Source: Thermoproteus sp. CP80
GTDB taxonomy: Archaea > Thermoproteota > Thermoprotei > Thermoproteales > Thermoproteaceae
Direction of reading: 5' to 3'
Length of the DNA stretch: 32,000 nucleotides
NCBI RefSeq assembly: GCF_002077075.2
Contig: NZ_LCWM02000015.1
Location: 6,288 to 38,287 of the forward strand
Shown here one piece after another: positions 1,695-24,785 of this stretch; the first letter of the stretch is position 1, and each line of letters opens with the position of its first letter. The notes under the pieces were generated by a model, which saw nothing but the letters and a program-made list of their open reading frames with translations, was not told where the DNA came from and made no database searches. Both the position numbers and the translations under genes were made by a program.

Positions 1695-3419
1695 TTAAAG
1701 CAGGTGGCCCGCCGTCGCCGTCCTCTTCCAGCCAGTCAGCGACACGCCTGTTATCTTCGTCCACATCTTGGGGTCGATTCTGAAGGACTGCTCTATCCTC
1801 TCCCTGTGGAAGTTGTTGTAGGTGCAGAACGGTACGACCCTCCCGTCGGGAGTGGCGTAGTGTATGTCGCAACGCTGTATCCTCTCCACGTCGAAGTTCA
1901 TGACGTCCATGAAGTGCATTATGCCGAGTCCCACTATGTTGAGGAAGAACTGGCCCAACGAGCCGTAGTCTTTCTTCACCAGGAAGTCCTGTATTAGGCC
2001 TTTGATCTTTCTGTGTTTGACCGTCCTCAGGAGCCTCATGGCCTTGGTCGCGGCCACGGCTTTCCAGACGGTCCTTCCCCTCTTGGCTGTCCTGTAGACG
2101 TCCCAGGCTATCCTCTCGAAGGCGTCGACGTCGACGAGCTTCGTGATGGGGTATATCTTCTTCTCATCGTCGTCGTAGTATATGAACGTCGCGGCGCCGC
2201 AGACGGGGTTCATGGAGAAGAGGGGCTTGGGGGAGTCCGTGAGCGCCTCGACCATCTTGGCGACCGCCACGGGCCAGTTGGTGGGCCTCCAGTCCCATCT
2301 GCTTATCAAGCCTCCCGTCTGCCTCTCTACCTCTATTATGGTGTCGGGTATGGTTATTCTGAACTTCCTCAGCTCCTCCTTGCTGTAAAGCCTGGCGCGG
2401 CCGGCGAAGGAAACAGGCTGTATATTGATCCAACGTATGACGTCTCTATTCTGTATGGCGAAGTCCAGGATCTTGCCGAGGTCCTTGTCGTTGTAGCCTC
2501 TGGCGAGGGTGACCACGGGCACTATCGACCGGTGGCCGAGCTGGCGGGCCACTTCTATCAGCTTGCGCCTAACTGCGGCGTATGCCTTGGGGTTGTAGAG
2601 GCGGTGTCTCACGACGCCTTCGTTGCCCGGGTCGATCGTGTCGAACTGCAGATAGAGCGTGGATATCCCGGCGTCCAGCAAGGCCTTGTAGAACTCGGGC
2701 TCGTTGGCCAGCCTTATGCCGTTTGTGTTGACCTCTATATGCGTGAAGCCCAGCTTCTTGGCCATCCTGACTATCTCGGGCAGATCGTCCCTCAGCGTCG
2801 GCTCGCCTCCCGACAGCTGCAGGGCGTTGGGCGGCCACGGCCTCTGCGCCCTCAATGTCCTCAGCATGTACTCTATCTGCTCCAGCGTCGGCTCGTAGAC
2901 GTAGCCCGCGGCGCCGGCGTTGGCGAAGCACACGGGGCACGCCATGTTGCATCTGTTGGTGACGTCTATGATGGCGAGCACGGTATCCGACTTGTGGACG
3001 GGGCAGAGGCCGCAGCCCATGGGGCAGGACCCCATCTCCGTATAGAACTGGAGGTCTGTGTATGGGTTGGCGAGGCCCTTGGCTATATACTCCGGCGTAT
3101 CCCACTGGAGGAAGTAGTAGTACATCTCGGCGTCGCCCCAGTACAGATCCTCGAACGCCCCGTGTTCGGGGCAGACCTTCTTCAGCCATATGGCGCCGTT
3201 CTCCTCGTAGACGGCCATGGGTATCCTTCTATTGCAGACCGGACATACTGACAGGGATGTCTTTACGACCCTCGTGTGTTCGGGCAGGGCGAACTGCCTC
3301 TTGACGGCGTTCTGCCAAGCTTCGTTCAATAGGGTGGTCTTGTATCTGGTGGATAGATTAAACCTGCTTAGGTCCACGAGCCTGGCGGGCCTTGCCAGCT
3401 CTAGAACCTGTTTGCTCAT
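1695..3419 (-). CDS. radical SAM enzyme with N-terminal Cys4/rubredoxin-like ribbon; possibly tetraether lipid synthase (Tes/GDGT-MAS family)
   Basis: 574 aa with the CX3CX2C radical SAM motif (NRCNMACPVCF) and SGGEPTLR. The N-terminal CPVC...CPEHG metal-binding ribbon and the size fit the COG1964/Tes-like architecture. The radical SAM call is firm. The Tes assignment comes from remembered architecture only. Confidence 0.75.
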   Translation of the reverse strand: MSKQVLELARPARLVDLSRFNLSTRYKTTLLNEAWQNAVKRQFALPEHTRVVKTSLSVCPVCNRRIPMAVYEENGAIWLKKVCPEHGAFEDLYWGDAEMYYYFLQWDTPEYIAKGLANPYTDLQFYTEMGSCPMGCGLCPVHKSDTVLAIIDVTNRCNMACPVCFANAGAAGYVYEPTLEQIEYMLRTLRAQRPWPPNALQLSGGEPTLRDDLPEIVRMAKKLGFTHIEVNTNGIRLANEPEFYKALLDAGISTLYLQFDTIDPGNEGVVRHRLYNPKAYAAVRRKLIEVARQLGHRSIVPVVTLARGYNDKDLGKILDFAIQNRDVIRWINIQPVSFAGRARLYSKEELRKFRITIPDTIIEVERQTGGLISRWDWRPTNWPVAVAKMVEALTDSPKPLFSMNPVCGAATFIYYDDDEKKIYPITKLVDVDAFERIAWDVYRTAKRGRTVWKAVAATKAMRLLRTVKHRKIKGLIQDFLVKKDYGSLGQFFLNIVGLGIMHFMDVMNFDVERIQRCDIHYATPDGRVVPFCTYNNFHRERIEQSFRIDPKMWTKITGVSLTGWKRTATAGHLL

Positions 3420-3473
3420 TGAGCCCGCCGGCCCCTCGGTTTAAAAATTTTTTAATGGTATTCCGTTAATTTC
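3420..3473. promoter_or_regulatory. shared bidirectional promoter (radical SAM gene / trmB-like gene)
   Basis: A 54-bp spacer holds one AT-rich tract (TTTAAAAATTTTTTAAT, about 3440-3456). The tract lies ~20-30 nt from both divergent start codons (ATG at 3419 on the minus strand, GTG at 3474 on the plus strand). Confidence 0.55.
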
Positions 3474-4187
3474 GTGAAGAAGTCCGTCCTCAAGGCCCTG
3501 GGGCTGGAGGAGAGGGACCTGGCCATCTACGCGCTTTTGGTAGAGCGGGGGGCGCTCACGGCGAGGGAGATCGCCGAGATGGTCGGCATACCCTATACTA
3601 AGATATATCAACGCCTAGATGCGCTCGAGGGGCAGGGCTTCTTGGAGCGGATCGAGGGGCGGCCCGCCAGATATGCCGCCCGGCCGCCCGCCGAGGTCTA
3701 CAAGGGCTTGGTCTCCTACGCCTCGACCGCCCTCAAGGCCTTGAAGGAGCAGCTGGACCTCCTGCAGACCCTCTACGAGAGCAGATATGGGAAGGCCTCC
3801 ACTACCTTCATAGCCCTTATAAGAGGCGACAAGGTGATGGAGCTCCTCGAGGAGGTGATCAAGGCGAGCGATTCGGCCGTCTACGTGGCGTTGCCCTATC
3901 CGGAGCTCGCAACGCCGCGGGTGATGGCCGCAATCGAGGAGGAGTCCAAGCGGATCGAGGTAAAGCTCCTCTTGGCCAAGAAGATCGCTAAATATGTCTA
4001 TTCGCCTCCGCGGGTCGACGCGAGAGCGCTGGAGGATATGTTCGGCGGAGGGGCTCTGGGGAATTCGGCTCTGCTGGTGGTGAGACATGGGGAGGGGCTC
4101 CTCGGCATACATAGCAATGAGCGCTACCTCCTCGACATAGCGAAGACCTATTTCAACTATCTATGGGACAGGGCTGAGCCGGTATAG
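3474..4187 (+). CDS. TrmB-family winged-helix transcriptional regulator
   Basis: 237 aa. The N-terminus (LGLEERDLAIYALLVERGALTAREIAEMVGIPYTKIYQRLDALEGQGFLERIEGRPARY) is a typical TrmB HTH, followed by a C-terminal TrmB-like domain. GTG start. Confidence 0.8.
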   Translation: MKKSVLKALGLEERDLAIYALLVERGALTAREIAEMVGIPYTKIYQRLDALEGQGFLERIEGRPARYAARPPAEVYKGLVSYASTALKALKEQLDLLQTLYESRYGKASTTFIALIRGDKVMELLEEVIKASDSAVYVALPYPELATPRVMAAIEEESKRIEVKLLLAKKIAKYVYSPPRVDARALEDMFGGGALGNSALLVVRHGEGLLGIHSNERYLLDIAKTYFNYLWDRAEPV

Positions 4188-4204
4188 CGTAGCCAGGAGG
4201 CCTT

Positions 4205-4283
4205 GCGGCGTCTGGCTCTACCCAGCCATGATGAGGATGCTCGAAAAGGCCAGGGCGCACCTCGGCGGGGACTTGCCTATAAT
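4205..4283 (+). pseudogene. orphan 79-bp fragment of pyrD (inverted duplicate of 341-419)
   Basis: Same match as above. The fragment starts 18 nt after the trmB-like stop. It explains the spurious ORFs 4228..4416(+) and 4153..4431(-), which carry PyrD-like or anti-PyrD peptides. Confidence 0.9.
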
Positions 4284-4306
4284 GTTCGAACACGCAATCC
4301 TTAGAC

Positions 4307-4400
4307 GGTGCGTCGATTCCACTTGCGCCCGCCGCCGTCCGGACGCCCGGCGCGTCGGTTCCAAATGTCCGATCGGCCGATTCGAAATGCCAATTTTTCG
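4307..4400 (+). repeat. GC-rich module copies upstream of tnpB (about 1.5 units plus a GGCCGAT tail)
   Basis: GGTGCGTCGATTCCACT (4307-4326) and GCCGCCGTCCGGACGCCCGGCGCGTCGGTTCCAAATG (4331-4367) are followed by TCCGATCGGCCGATTCGAAATGCCAATTTTT. Homologous to 5676-5726 (+), 5959-5991 (-), 6001-6033 (-) and 24615-24671 (+). Confidence 0.75.
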
Positions 4401-4406
4401 GCGTTT

Positions 4407-4460
4407 CCCTCCCTAATTTGAACCGGCTCACAAAGGTTTTTAGTTCAACATAAGGGAGGC
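4407..4460 (+). other. imperfect hairpin just upstream of tnpB (possible left-end structure)
   Basis: CCCTCCCTaatTTGAAC-(20 nt)-GTTCAAcataAGGGAGG. The arms are complementary: TTGAAC/GTTCAA, and CCCTCC(C)T/AGGGAGG with one unpaired C. The function is inferred only. Confidence 0.35.
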
Positions 4461-4473
4461 CGAGGGATGGGAT

Positions 4474-5649
4474 ATGGGAAAGTACAGAGCGTTGGTGTTG
4501 AAATATAATCTGCTACGGCTCCCGCCGGAGGTCGCCGAAAAGATCCCGGCGCTCCTCCGGGTACAAGAGGAGTTCAGAAAATGGGCGGCGGAATGGGCCA
4601 AAAGCGGGGGCTCTTTGCCCCCGCCGGAACGTCCGCTGAAATATTTCGCCGAAGAGTTTCTCCATGCGGGTAATGCGCTAGGGCTCAAAGGCTTAAAGAA
4701 AAACGGCATAGAGGTAAGGGGCGCAAGGCCCCCGCTGATCTTCGACGCCCAGTTGCGGTTAAGCAAAGAAAGAGATAAAAGTAGGGGCATCCTTGTCGAT
4801 ATACCGAGGAGGGGGGTGAGGATCAGGAAGTGGAATAACGGTAACACGATCACGCTTCCGCTTACAGATAAGGCTGTAGAGTTGATATTGGAGAGAACAA
4901 GGGAGGGTGGAAAGCTCGTGATGGCTGCCGTCTGGATCGGGAGAAGCAGGAGAAGTCGCGCCGTGAAGTTGTACGTAGCCCTCACGTTCAGGCGCGAGAT
5001 CGCACCGATGGAGGCCGAGAGGCTTCTCGTCGTCGACGTGAACGCCCTCCACAACGGCCTCGCGTGGGCCGTGGTGGAGGGGGAGAGGATAGTGGAAAAG
5101 GGAGTGTTGAAGCCCAACATATCCAAAATCCTACATCTACAGAAGGTGATCGCCAGGCTCGATAGTGTATGCGCCGAGAAGGACGAGAGGTGCGGCGAGG
5201 CCATGGCCGTGAAGAGCCGCATCTGGCGGCTCTTGCGCGAGTGGGAGGACGAGGCGGCGAAGAAAATCGTCGGCCTCGCCAGGCAGTACAAAGCCGCGGT
5301 TGTCGTCGATATGCCAAACGACGAGTCCATGAGAGAACTGAAAGAGGGCGGCTACGCCTCCGAGAAGAAAGTCTTTCTAAACTTCGGCCGTATAAGGAGG
5401 AGGCTCAGAGGCCTCGCGGAGTGGTACGGCGTGCCGTACCGCGAGGAGAGGCTGTATTCGACTGTTTGCCCCCGCTGTGGGAGAAAGATGGAGGAGTTGC
5501 CGAATAGGCGCGTGAAGTGTCAATGCGGCTTCGAGGCCCATAGGGATGAGGTGCCCATATACTGGGCTCAAAGGCGGTTTCCCGACCTGATAACCCCCTC
5601 TTTTTCTTCCTCCTCCGCCGTCCTACGCATTACGGCGCCGGCCGCCTAG
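4474..5649 (+). CDS. tnpB: TnpB (IS200/IS605-family OrfB, RNA-guided nuclease-like); no tnpA nearby
   Basis: 391 aa with a RuvC-I-like LLVVDVNALHNG. The C-terminal zinc ribbon CPRCGRKM...VKCQCGFEAHRD is followed by a RuvC-III-like HRD. The RuvC-II position reads VVVDM rather than the usual hhhEDL. The low-complexity tail (SFSSSSAVLRITAPAA) may be translation of an RNA-coding region. Confidence 0.85.
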   Translation: MGKYRALVLKYNLLRLPPEVAEKIPALLRVQEEFRKWAAEWAKSGGSLPPPERPLKYFAEEFLHAGNALGLKGLKKNGIEVRGARPPLIFDAQLRLSKERDKSRGILVDIPRRGVRIRKWNNGNTITLPLTDKAVELILERTREGGKLVMAAVWIGRSRRSRAVKLYVALTFRREIAPMEAERLLVVDVNALHNGLAWAVVEGERIVEKGVLKPNISKILHLQKVIARLDSVCAEKDERCGEAMAVKSRIWRLLREWEDEAAKKIVGLARQYKAAVVVDMPNDESMRELKEGGYASEKKVFLNFGRIRRRLRGLAEWYGVPYREERLYSTVCPRCGRKMEELPNRRVKCQCGFEAHRDEVPIYWAQRRFPDLITPSFSSSSAVLRITAPAA

Positions 5650-5675
5650 AGCCGCATGGGGGGCGTCCGGCGGAT

Positions 5676-5726
5676 CCGCCGTCCGGGCCGGCCCCTCCGC
5701 CGCCTTCACGGCGCGTCGGATCGGCC
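5676..5726 (+). repeat. GC-rich module copy immediately downstream of tnpB
   Basis: CCGCCGTCCGGGCCGG...CACGGCGCGTCGGATCGGCC. It shares GCCGTCC and CGGCGCGTCGG...ATCGGCC with 4331-4378 and lacks the TTCCAAATGTCCG segment. Confidence 0.6.
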
Positions 5727-5769
5727 GCACCTCCGCGGGCCCTGTCCGCCCTCGGCCACGCGTCTGAGC

Positions 5770-5856
5770 CATGCCGACAGGGAATACCTAGAGGGCGAAA
5801 CCAACAGGGGTGTACCCCCTGACAACCCCGCCTTCAGACTACTCCCTGTCGGCATG
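5770..5856 (+). ncRNA. 87-nt nested hairpin downstream of tnpB (candidate omega-RNA / right-end structure)
   Basis: Perfect 14-bp outer stem CATGCCGACAGGGA (5770-5783) / TCCCTGTCGGCATG (5843-5856). Inner 7-bp stem GAGGGCG (5791-5797) / CGCCTTC (5829-5835, one G-U pair). Apical GGGG-TGTA-CCCC (5807-5818). The strand and the RNA nature are inferred. Confidence 0.45.
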
Positions 5857-5949
5857 AGAATCCACCGAGGGGGCAGAATCGGGGTCGATTCGCGCCGACG
5901 AGGTGCCGCCCCGCCGGCCCTAAGCGGAACCGAGAAGGCGGAGGAGGAA

Positions 5950-6285
5950 GGCCGCGAGTGGAACCGACACGCCGAGAGAGGGGTCGGCGGCGAAGGCAAG
6001 TTGAACCGACGCGCCGATCCCCATGGACGGCGCGATAAATCGTTATATAGGGTAGCGCGTCTTCTCTCATGGAGAGGCGCCCCCGCGGGCCCGAGGGGCA
6101 GGGCCCGGGTCTGCCGTTTCGCCGCTTGGGTTGGGGCCGGAGAGCCCCGCCCAAACGCTTATGCGCGTAGAGGAGGAGGGGGCGCGCTCCCTACCCGGCC
6201 GGCGCCCCAGCCCGGGGGGCCTTGCGCCTCCCGGGCTCGAGAGCCCCCCTCGTCCGGCCGGAGTTGAAAGGGGGGCATCTGATGC
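5950..6285 (-). repeat. GC-rich structured element, copy B (homologous to 24421-24680 in reverse orientation)
   Basis: The reverse complement aligns colinearly with 24421-24680 through these blocks: CTCCGGCC, CCCGGGC(T/G)GGGG, GGGCTCTCCGGCCC, GCGGCGA, CTCTCCATG and GCGCCGTCCAT(G/A)G(G/A)GATCGGCG. It is dense in GC hairpins and has no credible ORF. Confidence 0.8.
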
Positions 6286-6320
6286 GAAGAGATTTTGATG
6301 GCGAAGAGATTTATAGATGG
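6284..6320 (+). repeat. tandem direct repeat at the outer edge of copy B
   Basis: GCGAAGAGATTTTGATG (6284-6300) is followed directly by GCGAAGAGATTTATAGATGG (6301-6320). Confidence 0.8.
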
Positions 6321-6422
6321 GTGCCTCGATCCCCTTCGTGATGACTAGAGGGTGAGCCCTCCGATGGGTGAGGCTGGTCTGGAGCGCTGATAAAGACGGC
6401 GTGGGCTCCGTCCTGGGGCTGG

Positions 6423-7088
6423 CTACAGATATACGTACTCCATCCAGCCCAGTTGAGGCAGGGAGGAAACGAGGCCGCCTATTATGCGTCTGTACAAGGT
6501 CTCCGTCTCGACCACCTTGGCCTTGGCGGACGTGGCGTCTCCTCCAGCTATCCTTATAAACGCTCTGTACCTTTCGCCGGAGAGCCGGCGGGCCGCGATG
6601 GAGACCTCCTCGACGTTAGAGGGCAGGACGAACGGGGGAGGCCTCTTCGCTACGTACTGCGGGGGAATGGGGCTCGACCTGGCTATTATCTTGCCTATCC
6701 CCTGGGCCGGGCGCTTCCGGCGCCCTCTACCGCCGACCACATGTATCAACGAGGGGCGGGACTTAAGGGCCAGCAGGTACAGCAACGTCGTGTAGTCGAG
6801 CGCCTTCTGGAGCGCCTGTATGGACTCCAGCTTTATCTCCTTGGCGTCTATCTCCAGCGTAAGCCTTCTGCATCCGTTTAACTCCCTCGATATAAACTCC
6901 ATCAAGTTCTCGTAGAGATTGACTGCGTCGTACAACACGACGACCTTGCCGTAGTCGTTAAACGCCAGGCCGTAGGGTTCCACCTTGGCCACCACGTAGT
7001 TGTCGCCTCTATAGACGCCGACCTCGCCGAGGTCTGAGACCACGAAAACGCCGCAGTTCTCCTGCATCGCCTCAATCCTTCCTCGCAA
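6423..7088 (-). CDS. hypothetical protein, last gene of the crenactin/arcadin operon (possible arcadin)
   Basis: 221 aa. Its start overlaps the stop of the SMC-like gene by 17 nt (an alternative Met at 7067 lies 5 nt after that stop). No motif recognised. It has a basic linker (GGRGRRKRPAQG). Confidence 0.6.
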   Translation of the reverse strand: MRGRIEAMQENCGVFVVSDLGEVGVYRGDNYVVAKVEPYGLAFNDYGKVVVLYDAVNLYENLMEFISRELNGCRRLTLEIDAKEIKLESIQALQKALDYTTLLYLLALKSRPSLIHVVGGRGRRKRPAQGIGKIIARSSPIPPQYVAKRPPPFVLPSNVEEVSIAARRLSGERYRAFIRIAGGDATSAKAKVVETETLYRRIIGGLVSSLPQLGWMEYVYL

Positions 7089-9474
7089 ATATATCTTTAG
7101 TTGTTGCTTCGGGTCTCCCCGAGCCGCGCAGCAACTCTATTACCTTCACGTCGACGCCGTTAGCCGCTATCTCCTTGGGCAGATCCTCGGTCTGTGTGGC
7201 CACCACCACTTGGTATTCAGCCGCGAGCGAAGCTATGAGGCCCGCCAGAGACGCCCTGACGCTGGGATCCACGTAGGGCAGAGGGTCGTCCAGCAGAAGG
7301 AAGCCCAGCCTAGGGCCTAACAGCCTGCGCATCGATATCACGAGCGAGAGCGCCACCGCCAACCGTTGCCCATCGCTAAGCTTGGAGATGCCCACGACGT
7401 TTCCATCCGCCAATCTCGCCTCCACCTCGTACGCCTTTTCCCTCAGCGTCAACCCCAACGACGCGATGTCCCTATATGGGTATATCTTTGAGAAATTCCT
7501 CCAGAGCTCATCCTCTATCTCCCCAATTATTCTAGATCTAACATTATATTTTAATATATCTATCTTATTTGATATTTCAGAAAATCTATTGTATGCATAC
7601 ATATACTTCTCCAGCCTCGACCTCAACATATCCAGCTCCTCGTCGACGTTGGCCAAGACCTCCGACAACTTCCTCAACTCGTCGTTAACATCCGCCTTTC
7701 TCCTCCTAATTCTGTCCAGCTCCTCGGAGATCGCCCGGAACTCCTCCTCGGCCTCCAGAGCCGCGCCGCTCAGGCCCAGATTCTTGAGCTCACGCTCCAA
7801 GCCCTCAAGCTCCTCGCGGAGTTGACGCGCCCTGAGCGCCCTGTTGTACCTCCTCAACATCTCCTCTACGGCCTCAGGCGTTACGCTACTCAAGAAGCCG
7901 GCCAACAGCTCGAGACGCCGCGAGATCTGGGAGTAGGACTTAGCCGCTTGGTCCAGCCTCGCCCTGGTCTTCTCCTCCTCGCCGGCCAGCCTCTCCAGCT
8001 CCTCCCTTGCCTTGAGGTACTCAGACACCGTCCCCAGGAGGGACGACAACTCCCTATAGGCGTCCTCCAGGGCCTCCAGCTCCTCCCTCGCCTTCTCCAG
8101 CTGGGCCAGCTCCTGCGAGTACTCCCTCTCTATATCCTTCAGTCTGCTCGACGCGGCGTCTCTGTCCAGCCTGCCGCCGCATACGGGGCACCTCTCGGCG
8201 CCGGTCTCCAGCGCGTATAAGATTATATACCTCAACGACGACGCGTAATGAGTCCTCTTCTCCAGCTCCTTGACCTTTTCCCTCGCCTCGTCCAGCCTCC
8301 TTCTGACCTCCTCGGGAGATCCGTAACGCGCGGAAACCTCCTTGAACCTCCTGTAGGCTCCCTCGAGCTGGTCGACCCTAGCCCTAAGCCTGGAAATCTC
8401 GGTTCTCAGCTCGTCCAGTCTAGCCGCCAGCGACCTCCTCTGGGCGTCGGCCGCCGAGAGGGCCTCCTCCAGGGAGCCTTTTATCTTGGCCAACTCCATA
8501 TAGGCCTCCTGCAGAAGTTCGGCGAGCTTCGCGGCGTCGGGCTCCCTCGATATTTTCTCGAGCATCTGCGGGTCGAGCATGTGCTCGAACTCGGCCATAA
8601 CTCCCACGAACCTATCTCTGAGCTCCTCTATGCGCCCCAGCTCCGAGATATACGCCTCGCGGCCCGACTCCTCCAGCAACTCCAGCTCGGACTTGGCCCT
8701 GTAGTAGGCGTTTATCTTGTCTTGAAGGGCCGATATTTTGTCCATATACCTCCTCCTCTCCTCTAGGAGCTCTCTGTATCTAGCAGATAGATCCGCCTCC
8801 CGGCGCGTGAGGTCCTCGAGCTCTCTCTCCAGCGATGCCTTTACGCCCTTCAGCTTGGACAGACTTCCGTATTTCTCTATCGTGTCTCTATATTTCTCAT
8901 AATACGATATTTTAATTCTAATTTTTTCTATTTCCTTCATTATATTTTTTAATGTAATATTTATTATTTTCTGAATATTATCTAATATATCTATTTGAAG
9001 TATTTTATCTATTAACGAAGTCCTCTTGAGCCTATCGCCGTGTATGAAGTCCTCCAACGCGTAGTGGGATATATAGATCACTCTGTCGTAGTCGTCGCCC
9101 GTTATGCCCGTCATCTCGGCGAGCGCCCCCTCGGCGGCTTCGTCCAGATATCTGCGGTCGTCGAGCTTGAGCTCCAGGCGGCTCCGGCCCCCCCTCCCCA
9201 CCGACCGCCTCACCAGGGCCTTCCTGGTCCCGTCGGCTAGCTCCAGCTCCACCAGGGCGCTGTCGGAGCTCAAGTTGACCAGATCCGCGAGCCTCGCTAT
9301 CCTCTGCCTGACCTCCATCTCCCGCCCGAACAAGGCGAACTCGATTGCCTGGAGCAACGAGGATTTGCCGGCGCCTACCCTGCCGACGATGGCCGTCACC
9401 GGCGATAGCTGGAACTCGTATTCTCCCGAGTAGACCTTGAAGTCCCTCAGCCTAATCCTCGAGATCCTCCACAT
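7072..9474 (-). CDS. SMC/Rad50-like coiled-coil ATPase (arcadin-4-like)
   Basis: 800 aa with Walker A GRVGAGKSS, long coiled coils and a central CxxC hook (ERCPVCGG). The signature is LSDGQRLAVAL and Walker B is FLLLDDP. It lies downstream of crenactin, as in the arcade cluster. Confidence 0.8.
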   Translation of the reverse strand: MWRISRIRLRDFKVYSGEYEFQLSPVTAIVGRVGAGKSSLLQAIEFALFGREMEVRQRIARLADLVNLSSDSALVELELADGTRKALVRRSVGRGGRSRLELKLDDRRYLDEAAEGALAEMTGITGDDYDRVIYISHYALEDFIHGDRLKRTSLIDKILQIDILDNIQKIINITLKNIMKEIEKIRIKISYYEKYRDTIEKYGSLSKLKGVKASLERELEDLTRREADLSARYRELLEERRRYMDKISALQDKINAYYRAKSELELLEESGREAYISELGRIEELRDRFVGVMAEFEHMLDPQMLEKISREPDAAKLAELLQEAYMELAKIKGSLEEALSAADAQRRSLAARLDELRTEISRLRARVDQLEGAYRRFKEVSARYGSPEEVRRRLDEAREKVKELEKRTHYASSLRYIILYALETGAERCPVCGGRLDRDAASSRLKDIEREYSQELAQLEKAREELEALEDAYRELSSLLGTVSEYLKAREELERLAGEEEKTRARLDQAAKSYSQISRRLELLAGFLSSVTPEAVEEMLRRYNRALRARQLREELEGLERELKNLGLSGAALEAEEEFRAISEELDRIRRRKADVNDELRKLSEVLANVDEELDMLRSRLEKYMYAYNRFSEISNKIDILKYNVRSRIIGEIEDELWRNFSKIYPYRDIASLGLTLREKAYEVEARLADGNVVGISKLSDGQRLAVALSLVISMRRLLGPRLGFLLLDDPLPYVDPSVRASLAGLIASLAAEYQVVVATQTEDLPKEIAANGVDVKVIELLRGSGRPEATTKDIFARKD

Positions 9475-23598: not shown

Positions 23599-24419
23599 TG
23601 GCGTCCATATCCCCCTACGGAAAGCGCTTCATCTCGTACATAAGGCAGAGCCAGATAAGGAGGCTCGTGGGGTCCGGCGTCAGGATAGACGGGAGGACGC
23701 CCCACCAGCTGAGGGACGTGTCCATCAGGACCAACGTGGTCAATACCGCGGATGGGTCGGCCGAGGCGCTGTTGGGGAAGACCAGAGTGGTGGCGGGAGT
23801 CAAGGTGGGCCTGGGCCAGCCGTTCCCGGACACGCCCGACGAGGGCGTGTTGATAGTGAACGCCGAGATTCTGCCGCATGCCTCCCCCTACAGCGAGATA
23901 GGGCCTCCGGACGAGACGGCCATAGAGCTCGCCCGCGTGGTGGACCGCGGCATACGCCACAGCGGCTTCGTGGACTTCAAGAAGCTGGCGATAGACCAGA
24001 ACAAGGTCTACGTGCTCTGGGTAGATCTCTACGTCCTGAACGACGACGGCAATCTGGTCGACGCGGCGAATCTCGCCGCCCTGGCGGCTCTACGGTCCAC
24101 CATGTTGCCGTCGGCCGTCAAGGACGAGGCGGGGGTTAAGCTGGATCGGAACAACAAGACGGCGCTTCCGTCCGACCTCTCCAAGGCGCCGATAGCGGTT
24201 TCGATAGGTAAGATAGATTCCCGCATTATAGTGGATCCCAACCTCGAGGAGGAGCTCTCGCTGGATGGACGGATAACCATAACCATAGCTCAGGACTCCA
24301 TCGTATCCATGCAGAAGACAGCCGGCTATTTCACCGAGCAGGAGCTCTGGCAGGCCGTGGACCTCGCCTACTCGATCAGGGACAAGCTCAGGGATGTTCT
24401 GCTGAAGAGCCTGGTCTGA
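23598..24419 (+). CDS. rrp42: exosome RNase PH-like subunit Rrp42
   Basis: 273 aa (RIDGRTPHQLRDV, ADGSAEALLGKTRVVAGV, VLNDDGNLVDAANLAALAAL). It overlaps the rrp41 stop by 1 nt. Confidence 0.9.
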   Translation: MASISPYGKRFISYIRQSQIRRLVGSGVRIDGRTPHQLRDVSIRTNVVNTADGSAEALLGKTRVVAGVKVGLGQPFPDTPDEGVLIVNAEILPHASPYSEIGPPDETAIELARVVDRGIRHSGFVDFKKLAIDQNKVYVLWVDLYVLNDDGNLVDAANLAALAALRSTMLPSAVKDEAGVKLDRNNKTALPSDLSKAPIAVSIGKIDSRIIVDPNLEEELSLDGRITITIAQDSIVSMQKTAGYFTEQELWQAVDLAYSIRDKLRDVLLKSLV

Positions 24420-24420
24420 G

Positions 24421-24680
24421 GCATCCCCTCTTCATCTCCGGCCAGGCGATGGGACTCGGGAACCCTCCCGGGCGGGGGCCCCAGCCGGTCGGGGCTCCCT
24501 CTTCGTCGTGAGGCATTTGGACGGGCTCTCCGGCCCGTGCGGCGAGCGGCCGGCCCTCGGCCGGCGGAGTCTCTCCATGGTGATACGTTACGTCTCTCCG
24601 TACGATGATCTGTTGCGCCGTCCATAGAGATCGGCGTGTGATTCCAAATGGCCGATAGGCCAATTTAAAATATCGATTTT
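24421..24680 (+). repeat. GC-rich structured element, copy A (homologous to the reverse complement of 5950-6285)
   Basis: It begins 2 nt after the rrp42 stop. It shares the colinear blocks listed for copy B, and its 3' part (24615-24671) carries the module GCGCCGTCCATAGAGATCGGCGTGTGATTCCAAATGGCCGATAGGCCAATTT. The ORFs listed here (24368..24625, 24388..24663) are Arg/Pro/Gly-rich artefacts. Confidence 0.8.
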
Positions 24681-24785
24681 ATTATAAGGCCAGTGGGCAC
24701 ATACCCAATTATGTGCAACAACGCTTGGAGGCGTGGTGCCAGCCTCATAGCAACAAAGACTTATAGATAGGTTGCTTCGGCGGCC

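Follow-up and report, generated by a model that had tools for sequence, protein, structure and literature searches.

Genes and features at the locus

The window (the whole 32,000-nucleotide stretch of DNA that we analyzed, C62:6288-38287) comes from a 77%-complete Thermoproteaceae MAG. It contains a tnpB gene, and the 640 nt on the 3' side of this gene are noncoding DNA of 65 to 68% GC. Within them, a TATA box is followed by ~210 nt of 78% GC that end in GGGGGGCA at position 6277. The main features are as follows (positions are those of the window).

~4184 to ~6296-6311, no strand: insertion block of ~2.1 kb, from collinearity with two sister genomes, G005 (L068) and G008 (L069)
4284-4363, minus strand: left arm, in which the box region ahead of the RNA promoter is repeated as a truncated mirror image; its reverse complement aligns with copies B and C2 up to "caccg"
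4474-5649, plus strand: tnpB, 391 aa, Pfam PF07282 (Cas12f1-like_TNB)
5959-6036, plus strand: repeat boxes GTGGAACCGACACGCCGA / GTTGAACCGACGCGCCGA and hairpin GCGCCG-ATCCCCATGGA-CGGCGC, conserved in A, C2, G026, and L076/L079
6043-6050, plus strand: TATA-like box TTATATAG, from the sequence and a homologous box in relatives
6069-6277, plus strand: predicted omega-RNA scaffold of ~205 to 209 nt (copy B), from covariation in 19 sequences; 100.5 bits with covariance model R1
6278-6296, plus strand: predicted guide TCTGATGCGAAGAGA with TTTT at 6293-6296, copy-specific sequence after GGGGG(C/T)A
24415-24652, minus strand: copy A, a solo cassette without tnpB; nhmmer E = 1.3e-43; R1, 55.2 bits at 24419-24494

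We set the 5' end of the scaffold at 6069 from the spacing to the TATA box and from where conservation begins, and its 3' end at 6277, the point at which all copies diverge.

The TnpB protein is 98% identical to a protein labeled Thermoproteus sp. CIS_19. Orthologues with 51 to 63% identity are present in 11 other genomes of Thermoproteaceae, and we found 287 homologues at an E value of ≤1e-20, which are abundant in hot-spring metagenomes. A phmmer search of PDB sequences with TnpB gave zero matches. We modeled the protein with AlphaFold2 from a 34-sequence alignment (pLDDT, 81.7) and searched the model with Foldseek, which matched Cas12f complexes (E, ~7e-12) and ISDra2 TnpB (8h1j, E = 5e-8; 8exa). 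D188, D279, and D358 show no substitution in 34 homologues. In the model, D188 and D279 close strands 183-188 and 274-279, and D358 opens helix 357-367. The CxxC...CxC (zinc finger) motif is also invariant among homologues. RuvC motif II reads VVVD, with Asp in place of the usual Glu. TnpB clades with a rearranged RuvC-II, several of them archaeal, have been described and are thought to be active (PMC10691335). With this Asp, the protein is a predicted nuclease. We found no Y1 TnpA in the 77%-complete genome; the one recombinase detected was a stand-alone serine resolvase.

The initial annotation had read a TATA-like box, TTATATAG, on the tnpB strand, and the box is present at 6043-6050. In homologous cassettes of four other genomes we found the same arrangement of a TATA box, 17 to 20 nt, and CATG(G/A), which most relatives share. 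This spacing is kept in G026_C149, G024_C89/C3, L029/39/41/48/31up, L028/L040, and L076. The box itself reads TTATATAG in G026_C149, CTTATATT in G024 C89, CTTATTAA in G024 C3, TTCATAAAT in the Pyrobaculum cassettes, and GTTAAATA in G019. Conservation of the arrangement across genera argues for 6043-6050 being a promoter, as first proposed. The conserved element continues 5' of the TATA box, through the boxes at 5959-6036, so the left limit drawn in the initial annotation marks the promoter, whereas homology reaches further. The box region is also found ahead of other genes and dispersed at further sites.

The hairpins described earlier are all present at the positions given. CGGGCCC/GGGCCCG pairs at 6086-6092/6101-6107, TTGGG-TT-GGGGC CGGAGA GCCCC-G-CCCAA lies at 6126-6154, and GGGGG-CGCG-CTCCC lies at 6178-6191. 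The repeat CCGGCCGG stands at 6195-6202 and 6254-6261, around AGCCCGGG/CCCGGGCT at 6209-6216/6230-6237, and the terminal sequence GGGGGGCATCTGATGC is at 6270-6285. GGCAG/CTGCC is present at 6097-6101/6111-6115, but the other copies do not keep this stem. A 203-aa open reading frame at 5656-6267 was rejected as coding: it has no Pfam match, and the copies differ by indels whose lengths are not divisible by three.

Structure of the GC-rich stretch

The minimum free energy of 6069-6277 was -125.1 kcal/mol, against -122.2 ± 5.2 kcal/mol for dinucleotide shuffles (z = -0.56). The same comparison for the reverse strand gave z = -1.28. The initial annotation had pointed to a hairpin-dense stretch of ~210 nt; the hairpins are there, but their density is within chance for the composition. 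The evidence for structure is comparative: covariation exceeds chance, and folding energy does not.

From seven copies we derived a covariance model of the 3'-terminal 92 nt (R1), with which 19 homologues (18 sources) were realigned. All helix counts were made on that alignment. RNAalifold gave a poor consensus on five MAFFT-aligned copies; in MAFFT alignments the helices were out of register, which the realignment put right. The helices, all on the plus strand, are as follows.

6195-6202 / 6254-6261: helix P_l; both sides changed in 6/8 pairs
6209-6216 / 6230-6237: helix P_v; both sides changed in 7/7 pairs
6243-6250 / 6269-6276: helix P_t; both sides changed in 2/8 pairs, plus 5 G-U variants
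6077-6084 (GCGCCCCC) / 6178-6185 (GGGGGCGC): helix P1 of the 5' domain, with compensatory changes; also predicted in the minimum-free-energy fold
6086-6107 and 6126-6154: hairpins of the 5' domain, the second with the invariant loop CGGAGA and the block GGCCGGAGAGC

Compensatory changes were found in 15 of the 23 pairs of the 3' domain. For example, in place of CCGGCCGG/CCGGCCGG, P_l has CCCCGCCGC/GCGGCGGGG in one group and CTCCGGGCG/CGCCCGGAG in a second, and P_t changes from GCCCC/GGGGC to GTCCC/GGGAC, with TGTCCCC/GGGGACA in L038. Over the 19 sequences, 87.4% of cells in these helices were paired, compared with 73.4% after shuffling. The covariation score was 0.380 (0.149 when shuffled), and 0 of 500 shuffles scored as high; sliding the partners by 1 to 3 columns gave scores of ≤0.076. 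The alignment was fitted by the model to both P_l and P_v, which inflates their pairing scores, and P_t lies outside the fitting model. P_t crosses P_l, so these covariation-supported helices make a pseudoknot. In the 5' domain, P1 is compensated as GTGCTCCC/GGGAGCGC in C2 and as GTGCCCCC/GGGGGCAT in G026_C120. This domain varies between subfamilies and is almost missing in G024_C3.

G-U pairs outnumber A-C mismatches by 21 to 6 when the plus strand is read, which favours an RNA on that strand. Together with the compensatory changes in three helices, this upholds the earlier proposal of a structured RNA on the tnpB strand. The stretch could instead work as DNA, as a long structured right end that is recognized in single-stranded form by a transposase. 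IS200/IS605 ends carry subterminal hairpins; the region lies at the end of an element, and its two strands fold about equally well. However, known end hairpins are 20 to 40 nt long and not a 210-nt multihelix pseudoknot, and the G-U excess belongs to one strand. The conserved TATA box, N17-20, and CATG ahead of the stretch, and a genome in which no Y1 transposase was detected, also speak against a DNA element, and we regard this explanation as very improbable.

Known RNA families did not account for the region. Searches of Rfam, at the gathering threshold and at E ≤ 10, gave nothing relevant, with weak C/D-box matches just outside the region, and a tRNA search of the region found none. The initial annotation had called for scans with RNase P (type T) and SRP models. 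Type-T RNase P RNA and SRP RNA resemble the cassette in size and in being GC-rich and multihelical, but the element in the window is multicopy and mobile. The type-T RNase P RNA lies elsewhere, at C16:57157-57364 (194.8 bits), with no match in the region at E ≤ 10. The archaeal SRP RNA model likewise had no match in the region at E ≤ 10, and the element has five copies. The Rfam Archaea_SRP model matched nothing anywhere in the 77%-complete assembly. Permuted SRP RNA genes occur in Thermoproteus, and the SRP RNA of this genome may be unassembled or of that kind. In the literature we found nothing specific on TnpB RNAs of Pyrobaculum or Thermoproteus, and a Pyrobaculum small-RNA survey (PMC3388794) makes no mention of such an RNA.

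Copies, arrangements, and element boundaries

A profile search found five full cassettes in the genome: B, C2:875-1167, A, C38:33804-33558, and C49:15626-15865. BLAST found further cassettes in G026 and G024, two MAGs of a neighboring genus. In the genome-wide scan with R1, a prefilter passed 148 of ~1000 candidates on for scoring, so copy counts in other genomes are lower bounds. In a self-comparison, copy A was ~74% identical to B, with indels of 1 to 17 nt. Copy A has a shorter 5' domain and lies next to RNase PH and spherulin-4 genes, and its flanks show no synteny in relatives. As noted at the outset, it lacks the conserved TATA box: it has ATCATCGTACGG where B has AATCGTTATATAGG, the box having decayed to TCGTACGG. 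C2 reads TCTTATGG at this position, C49 has lost the segment, and C38 is without the 5' part. Of the five genomic copies, B alone retains a canonical and correctly spaced TATA box. The earlier suggestion that B is expressed and A is silent is thus consistent with the sequences and is a reasonable reading of the promoters.

In the window, the cassette starts ~400 to 420 nt 3' of the tnpB stop codon, with its own TATA box ahead. Among relatives, the distance from tnpB ranges from 0 to ~540 nt. We found the following arrangements.

Downstream of tnpB on the same strand, detected with R1: the window, L027, L028, L029, L038, L039, L040, L041, L048, L043, and L049
Downstream of tnpB on the same strand, detected with R1: L076, a metagenomic relative with 84% identity across the whole element
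R1 match that starts on the final aligned codon of tnpB, immediately 3' of zinc-finger/RuvC-III coding sequence: L049 and L043 (G024 C98 and C115)
TATA box within ~10 nt of the tnpB C-terminal coding sequence: G024 C89
Separated from tnpB by 250 to 500 nt of hairpin and box repeats: the window and Pyrobaculum-like genomes
Full cassette upstream and inverted, in three lineages: C2, L079/L080, and L031

The 3' domain thus lies downstream of tnpB on the same strand at 12 loci from several genera; R1 did not detect it in L077 and listed no match in L030. L049 and L043, on Pyrobaculum-like contigs, have the classical overlapping omega-RNA layout. The scaffold does not overlap the 3' end of the tnpB open reading frame in the window, and such an overlap was found only in G024 C98 and C115. 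Overlap is typical of the omega-RNA family and is not mechanistically essential. The initial annotation had observed that the cassette is oriented as a TnpB guide scaffold would need to be. The same-strand position behind tnpB, abutting the coding end in two loci, bears this out.

In the spacer 3' of tnpB in the window, a long near-perfect hairpin, CCGACAGGG...CCCTGTCGG, occupies 5770-5856. It is conserved behind tnpB in L075, L077, L078, and L079, including copies without the RNA cassette. Separately, the first 110 nt past the tnpB stop codon (5653-5762) resemble the upstream region of a family of ~395-aa genes (MERKFSVDELRRRLEP...), possibly PaREP2-like, with at least 11 copies in the genome (C62:4498-5682, C31, C35, C38, C45, C65, C67, C68, C80, and others).

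In the sister genomes G005 and G008, the segment collinear with window 3001-4183 is followed, after just 60 and 37 nt, respectively, by a segment collinear with window 6337-7200 and 6312-7200. This identifies ~4184-6296 as an insertion. The block comprises the pyrD filler, the TnpB element and its cassette, and the first unit of a 17-nt tandem repeat. Its right edge is ≤18 nt from the last base of the scaffold, 6277, and 20 of 20 copies diverge directly after GGGGG(C/T)A. The scaffold therefore ends where homology and the insertion end, and unrelated sequence follows every copy, which further supports a guide scaffold.

The copies can also be explained without a functional link to tnpB, as an independent mobile noncoding element (MITE- or SINE-like) or a stand-alone cellular sRNA gene, with TnpB elements just inserting beside it or sharing its boxes. 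In accord with that, three of the five copies in this genome (A, C38, and C49) have no tnpB nearby, cassette orientation relative to tnpB varies, and the box region alone is found 5' of unrelated genes, such as the spherulin-4 gene in G017. Such an element, however, would not be expected to have its 3' domain fused to the 3' coding end of tnpB, as in G024 C98 and C115, to lie behind tnpB on the same strand at 12 loci in several genera, or to end at the edge of the tnpB-carrying insertion. The promoters of the solo copies are decayed or deleted, or their 5' domains are truncated, as would be expected of relics. We consider a tnpB-independent origin improbable and favor a cassette that belongs to the TnpB element.

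At the left end, 4306-4363 is 78% complementary to 5959-6016. The mirror copy is cut at the TATA position in the window and about two-thirds of the way through the cassette in L039; the arm is longer in L076 and L039 and of full length in C2, L079, and L031. The left arm of L076 (2273-2398, minus strand) holds ~18 nt of the RNA and an intact, outward-facing TATA box. This box faces the 3' end of an RsmB-like gene and may be an outward promoter. From the left ends of relatives, which are truncated mirror cassettes of differing lengths, we could read no shared motif as a TAM.

The left flank in the window is pyrD filler ending in CCTATAAT. Positions 4199-4283 are an 85-nt copy (96 to 99% identity) of an internal pyrD (DHO_dh) fragment, 341-419, which sits between the trmB stop codon and the left arm. 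Its junctions show microhomology (AGGCC and TTATAGG), and TTATAGG stands where the mirror TATA box has been lost. These sequences suggest templated filler from break repair. In L077, a tnpB of the same family stands beside pyrD.

On the right, a tandem near-duplicate starts 2 nt past A6277: TGATGCGAAGAGATTT at 6280-6296 is followed by TGATGGCGAAGAGATTT at 6297-6314. The second copy corresponds to the ancestral sRNA promoter region of G005 and G008, and the first is the predicted guide. The sRNA is a C/D-box candidate (GTGATGA ... CTGA) at 6334-6392 (plus strand), with weak Rfam matches to sR3/sR23 and a promoter at ~6311-6318. It is conserved, directly behind a trmB-like gene, in 7 of 8 other genomes of the genus that were searched. 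The TnpB element is inserted just 5' of its TATA box.

These flanks raise a further explanation, a domesticated or inactive system: either a TldR-like RNA-guided repressor of the adjacent C/D-box sRNA promoter or, for B, a dead relic. The predicted guide TGATGCGAAGAGATTT nearly duplicates the next 17 nt, TGATGGCGAAGAGATTT, which run into the sRNA TATA box, and RuvC-II is VVVD and not the Glu motif. On the other hand, guide and near-duplicate differ by an indel, the acidic triad is unchanged across 34 homologues, and clades with a rearranged RuvC-II are considered active (PMC10691335). The family is also multicopy and mobile across genomes. We therefore think domestication or decay very unlikely.

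A predicted guide-RNA cassette and its relation to known systems

Taking these data together, we propose that 6043-6296 is the cassette for the guide RNA (omega-RNA / reRNA) of a Thermoproteaceae TnpB insertion element ~2 kb long, at whose right end it lies, a reading to which we give a probability of about 0.8 on the sequence evidence. On this interpretation, the guide system is a known one, that of TnpB; the variant features are the cassette's own promoter, the long spacer, the mirrored arms, and the variable orientation.

According to this model, transcription would start near 6069-6073 from the TATA box at 6043-6050, and with a promoter of its own the cassette would be independent of tnpB transcription. 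The transcript would consist of a ~205-nt scaffold, in which a variable 5' domain closed by P1 is followed by the P_l/P_v/P_t pseudoknot. Transcription would then pass A6277 and run ~16 to 19 nt into the flank (TCTGATGCGAAGAGA) as far as the TTTT, and this flank would be the guide. The 18 nt 3' of the scaffold occur once in the genome. TTTT at 6293-6296 is a plausible archaeal terminator and would give a guide of 16 to 19 nt. By analogy with other TnpB systems, TnpB would bind the cassette RNA and cut DNA that matches the guide and lies beside a transposon-adjacent motif, chiefly the site left empty by excision. Cleavage of that site would drive recopying of the element, as in those systems.

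The cassettes that are upstream and inverted might arise by flipping of the tnpB segment between the mirrored box repeats. A full cassette, a truncated mirror, and tnpB in either direction are what inversion between mirrored boxes would give. Both orientations occur in three separate lineages, and some left arms carry an outward promoter (L076) or a full second cassette. A tentative extension is a two-faced, invertible TnpB transposon, in which the mirrored boxes let tnpB flip relative to a self-promoted guide cassette; we consider it unlikely. If it were true, either end could read a guide from its flank, and the element would be partway to guide genes that have their own promoters, act in trans, and are no longer coupled to the nuclease, as with tracrRNA or CRISPR.

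The locus resembles the TnpB-omega-RNA systems of IS200/IS605 and IS607 (ISDra2, 8h1j, 8exa) in its TnpB/Cas12f-fold protein and in a ~200-nt structured RNA on the tnpB strand at the transposon right end. The pseudoknot scaffold ends at the element boundary and is followed by variable flank sequence, and the relatives in G024 C98/C115 have the classical overlap with the 3' end of tnpB. The solo copies resemble omega-RNA-bearing PATEs, solo elements that have been described (doi 10.1101/2023.03.14.532601). In contrast to those systems, the cassette in the window has its own TATA box and lies ~420 nt past the tnpB stop codon, behind a repeat-box spacer, and the left arm of the element is a truncated mirror of the cassette's upstream part. 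In this family, tnpB stands either way round relative to the RNA, and RuvC-II has Asp for Glu. The RNA does not resemble described omega-RNAs in sequence and lacks an Rfam model, and no tnpA lies near the element. Cas12f sgRNA/tracrRNA offers a second comparison: the best structural matches of the TnpB model are Cas12f complexes, and both have a long, GC-rich, multistem guide scaffold. The window, however, has no CRISPR array, repeat, or separate tracrRNA, and the predicted guide is a fixed flank and not a spacer.

For the predicted guide RNA of a TnpB clade of hyperthermophilic Crenarchaeota, the analysis yields a scaffold model supported by covariation, together with a boundary and a predicted promoter. 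Within one family, the predicted guide overlaps tnpB, abuts it with its own promoter, lies hundreds of bases apart, is inverted, or stands alone. This natural series bears on how guide genes became independent of the nuclease gene on the way to Cas12 systems. The system is also a compact, thermostable candidate for genome editing. For annotation, the cassette accounts for a GC-rich repeat that recurs between genes in Thermoproteus and Pyrobaculum genomes.

The boxes also occur by themselves. In G017 (L057), from another genus, a box/hairpin region that has no RNA cassette precedes a spherulin-4-like gene with 86% identity; its counterpart in the window is at 24653-24785. Possibly the boxes form a module of their own, for regulation or recombination, and the spherulin-4-like gene may have been transferred horizontally.
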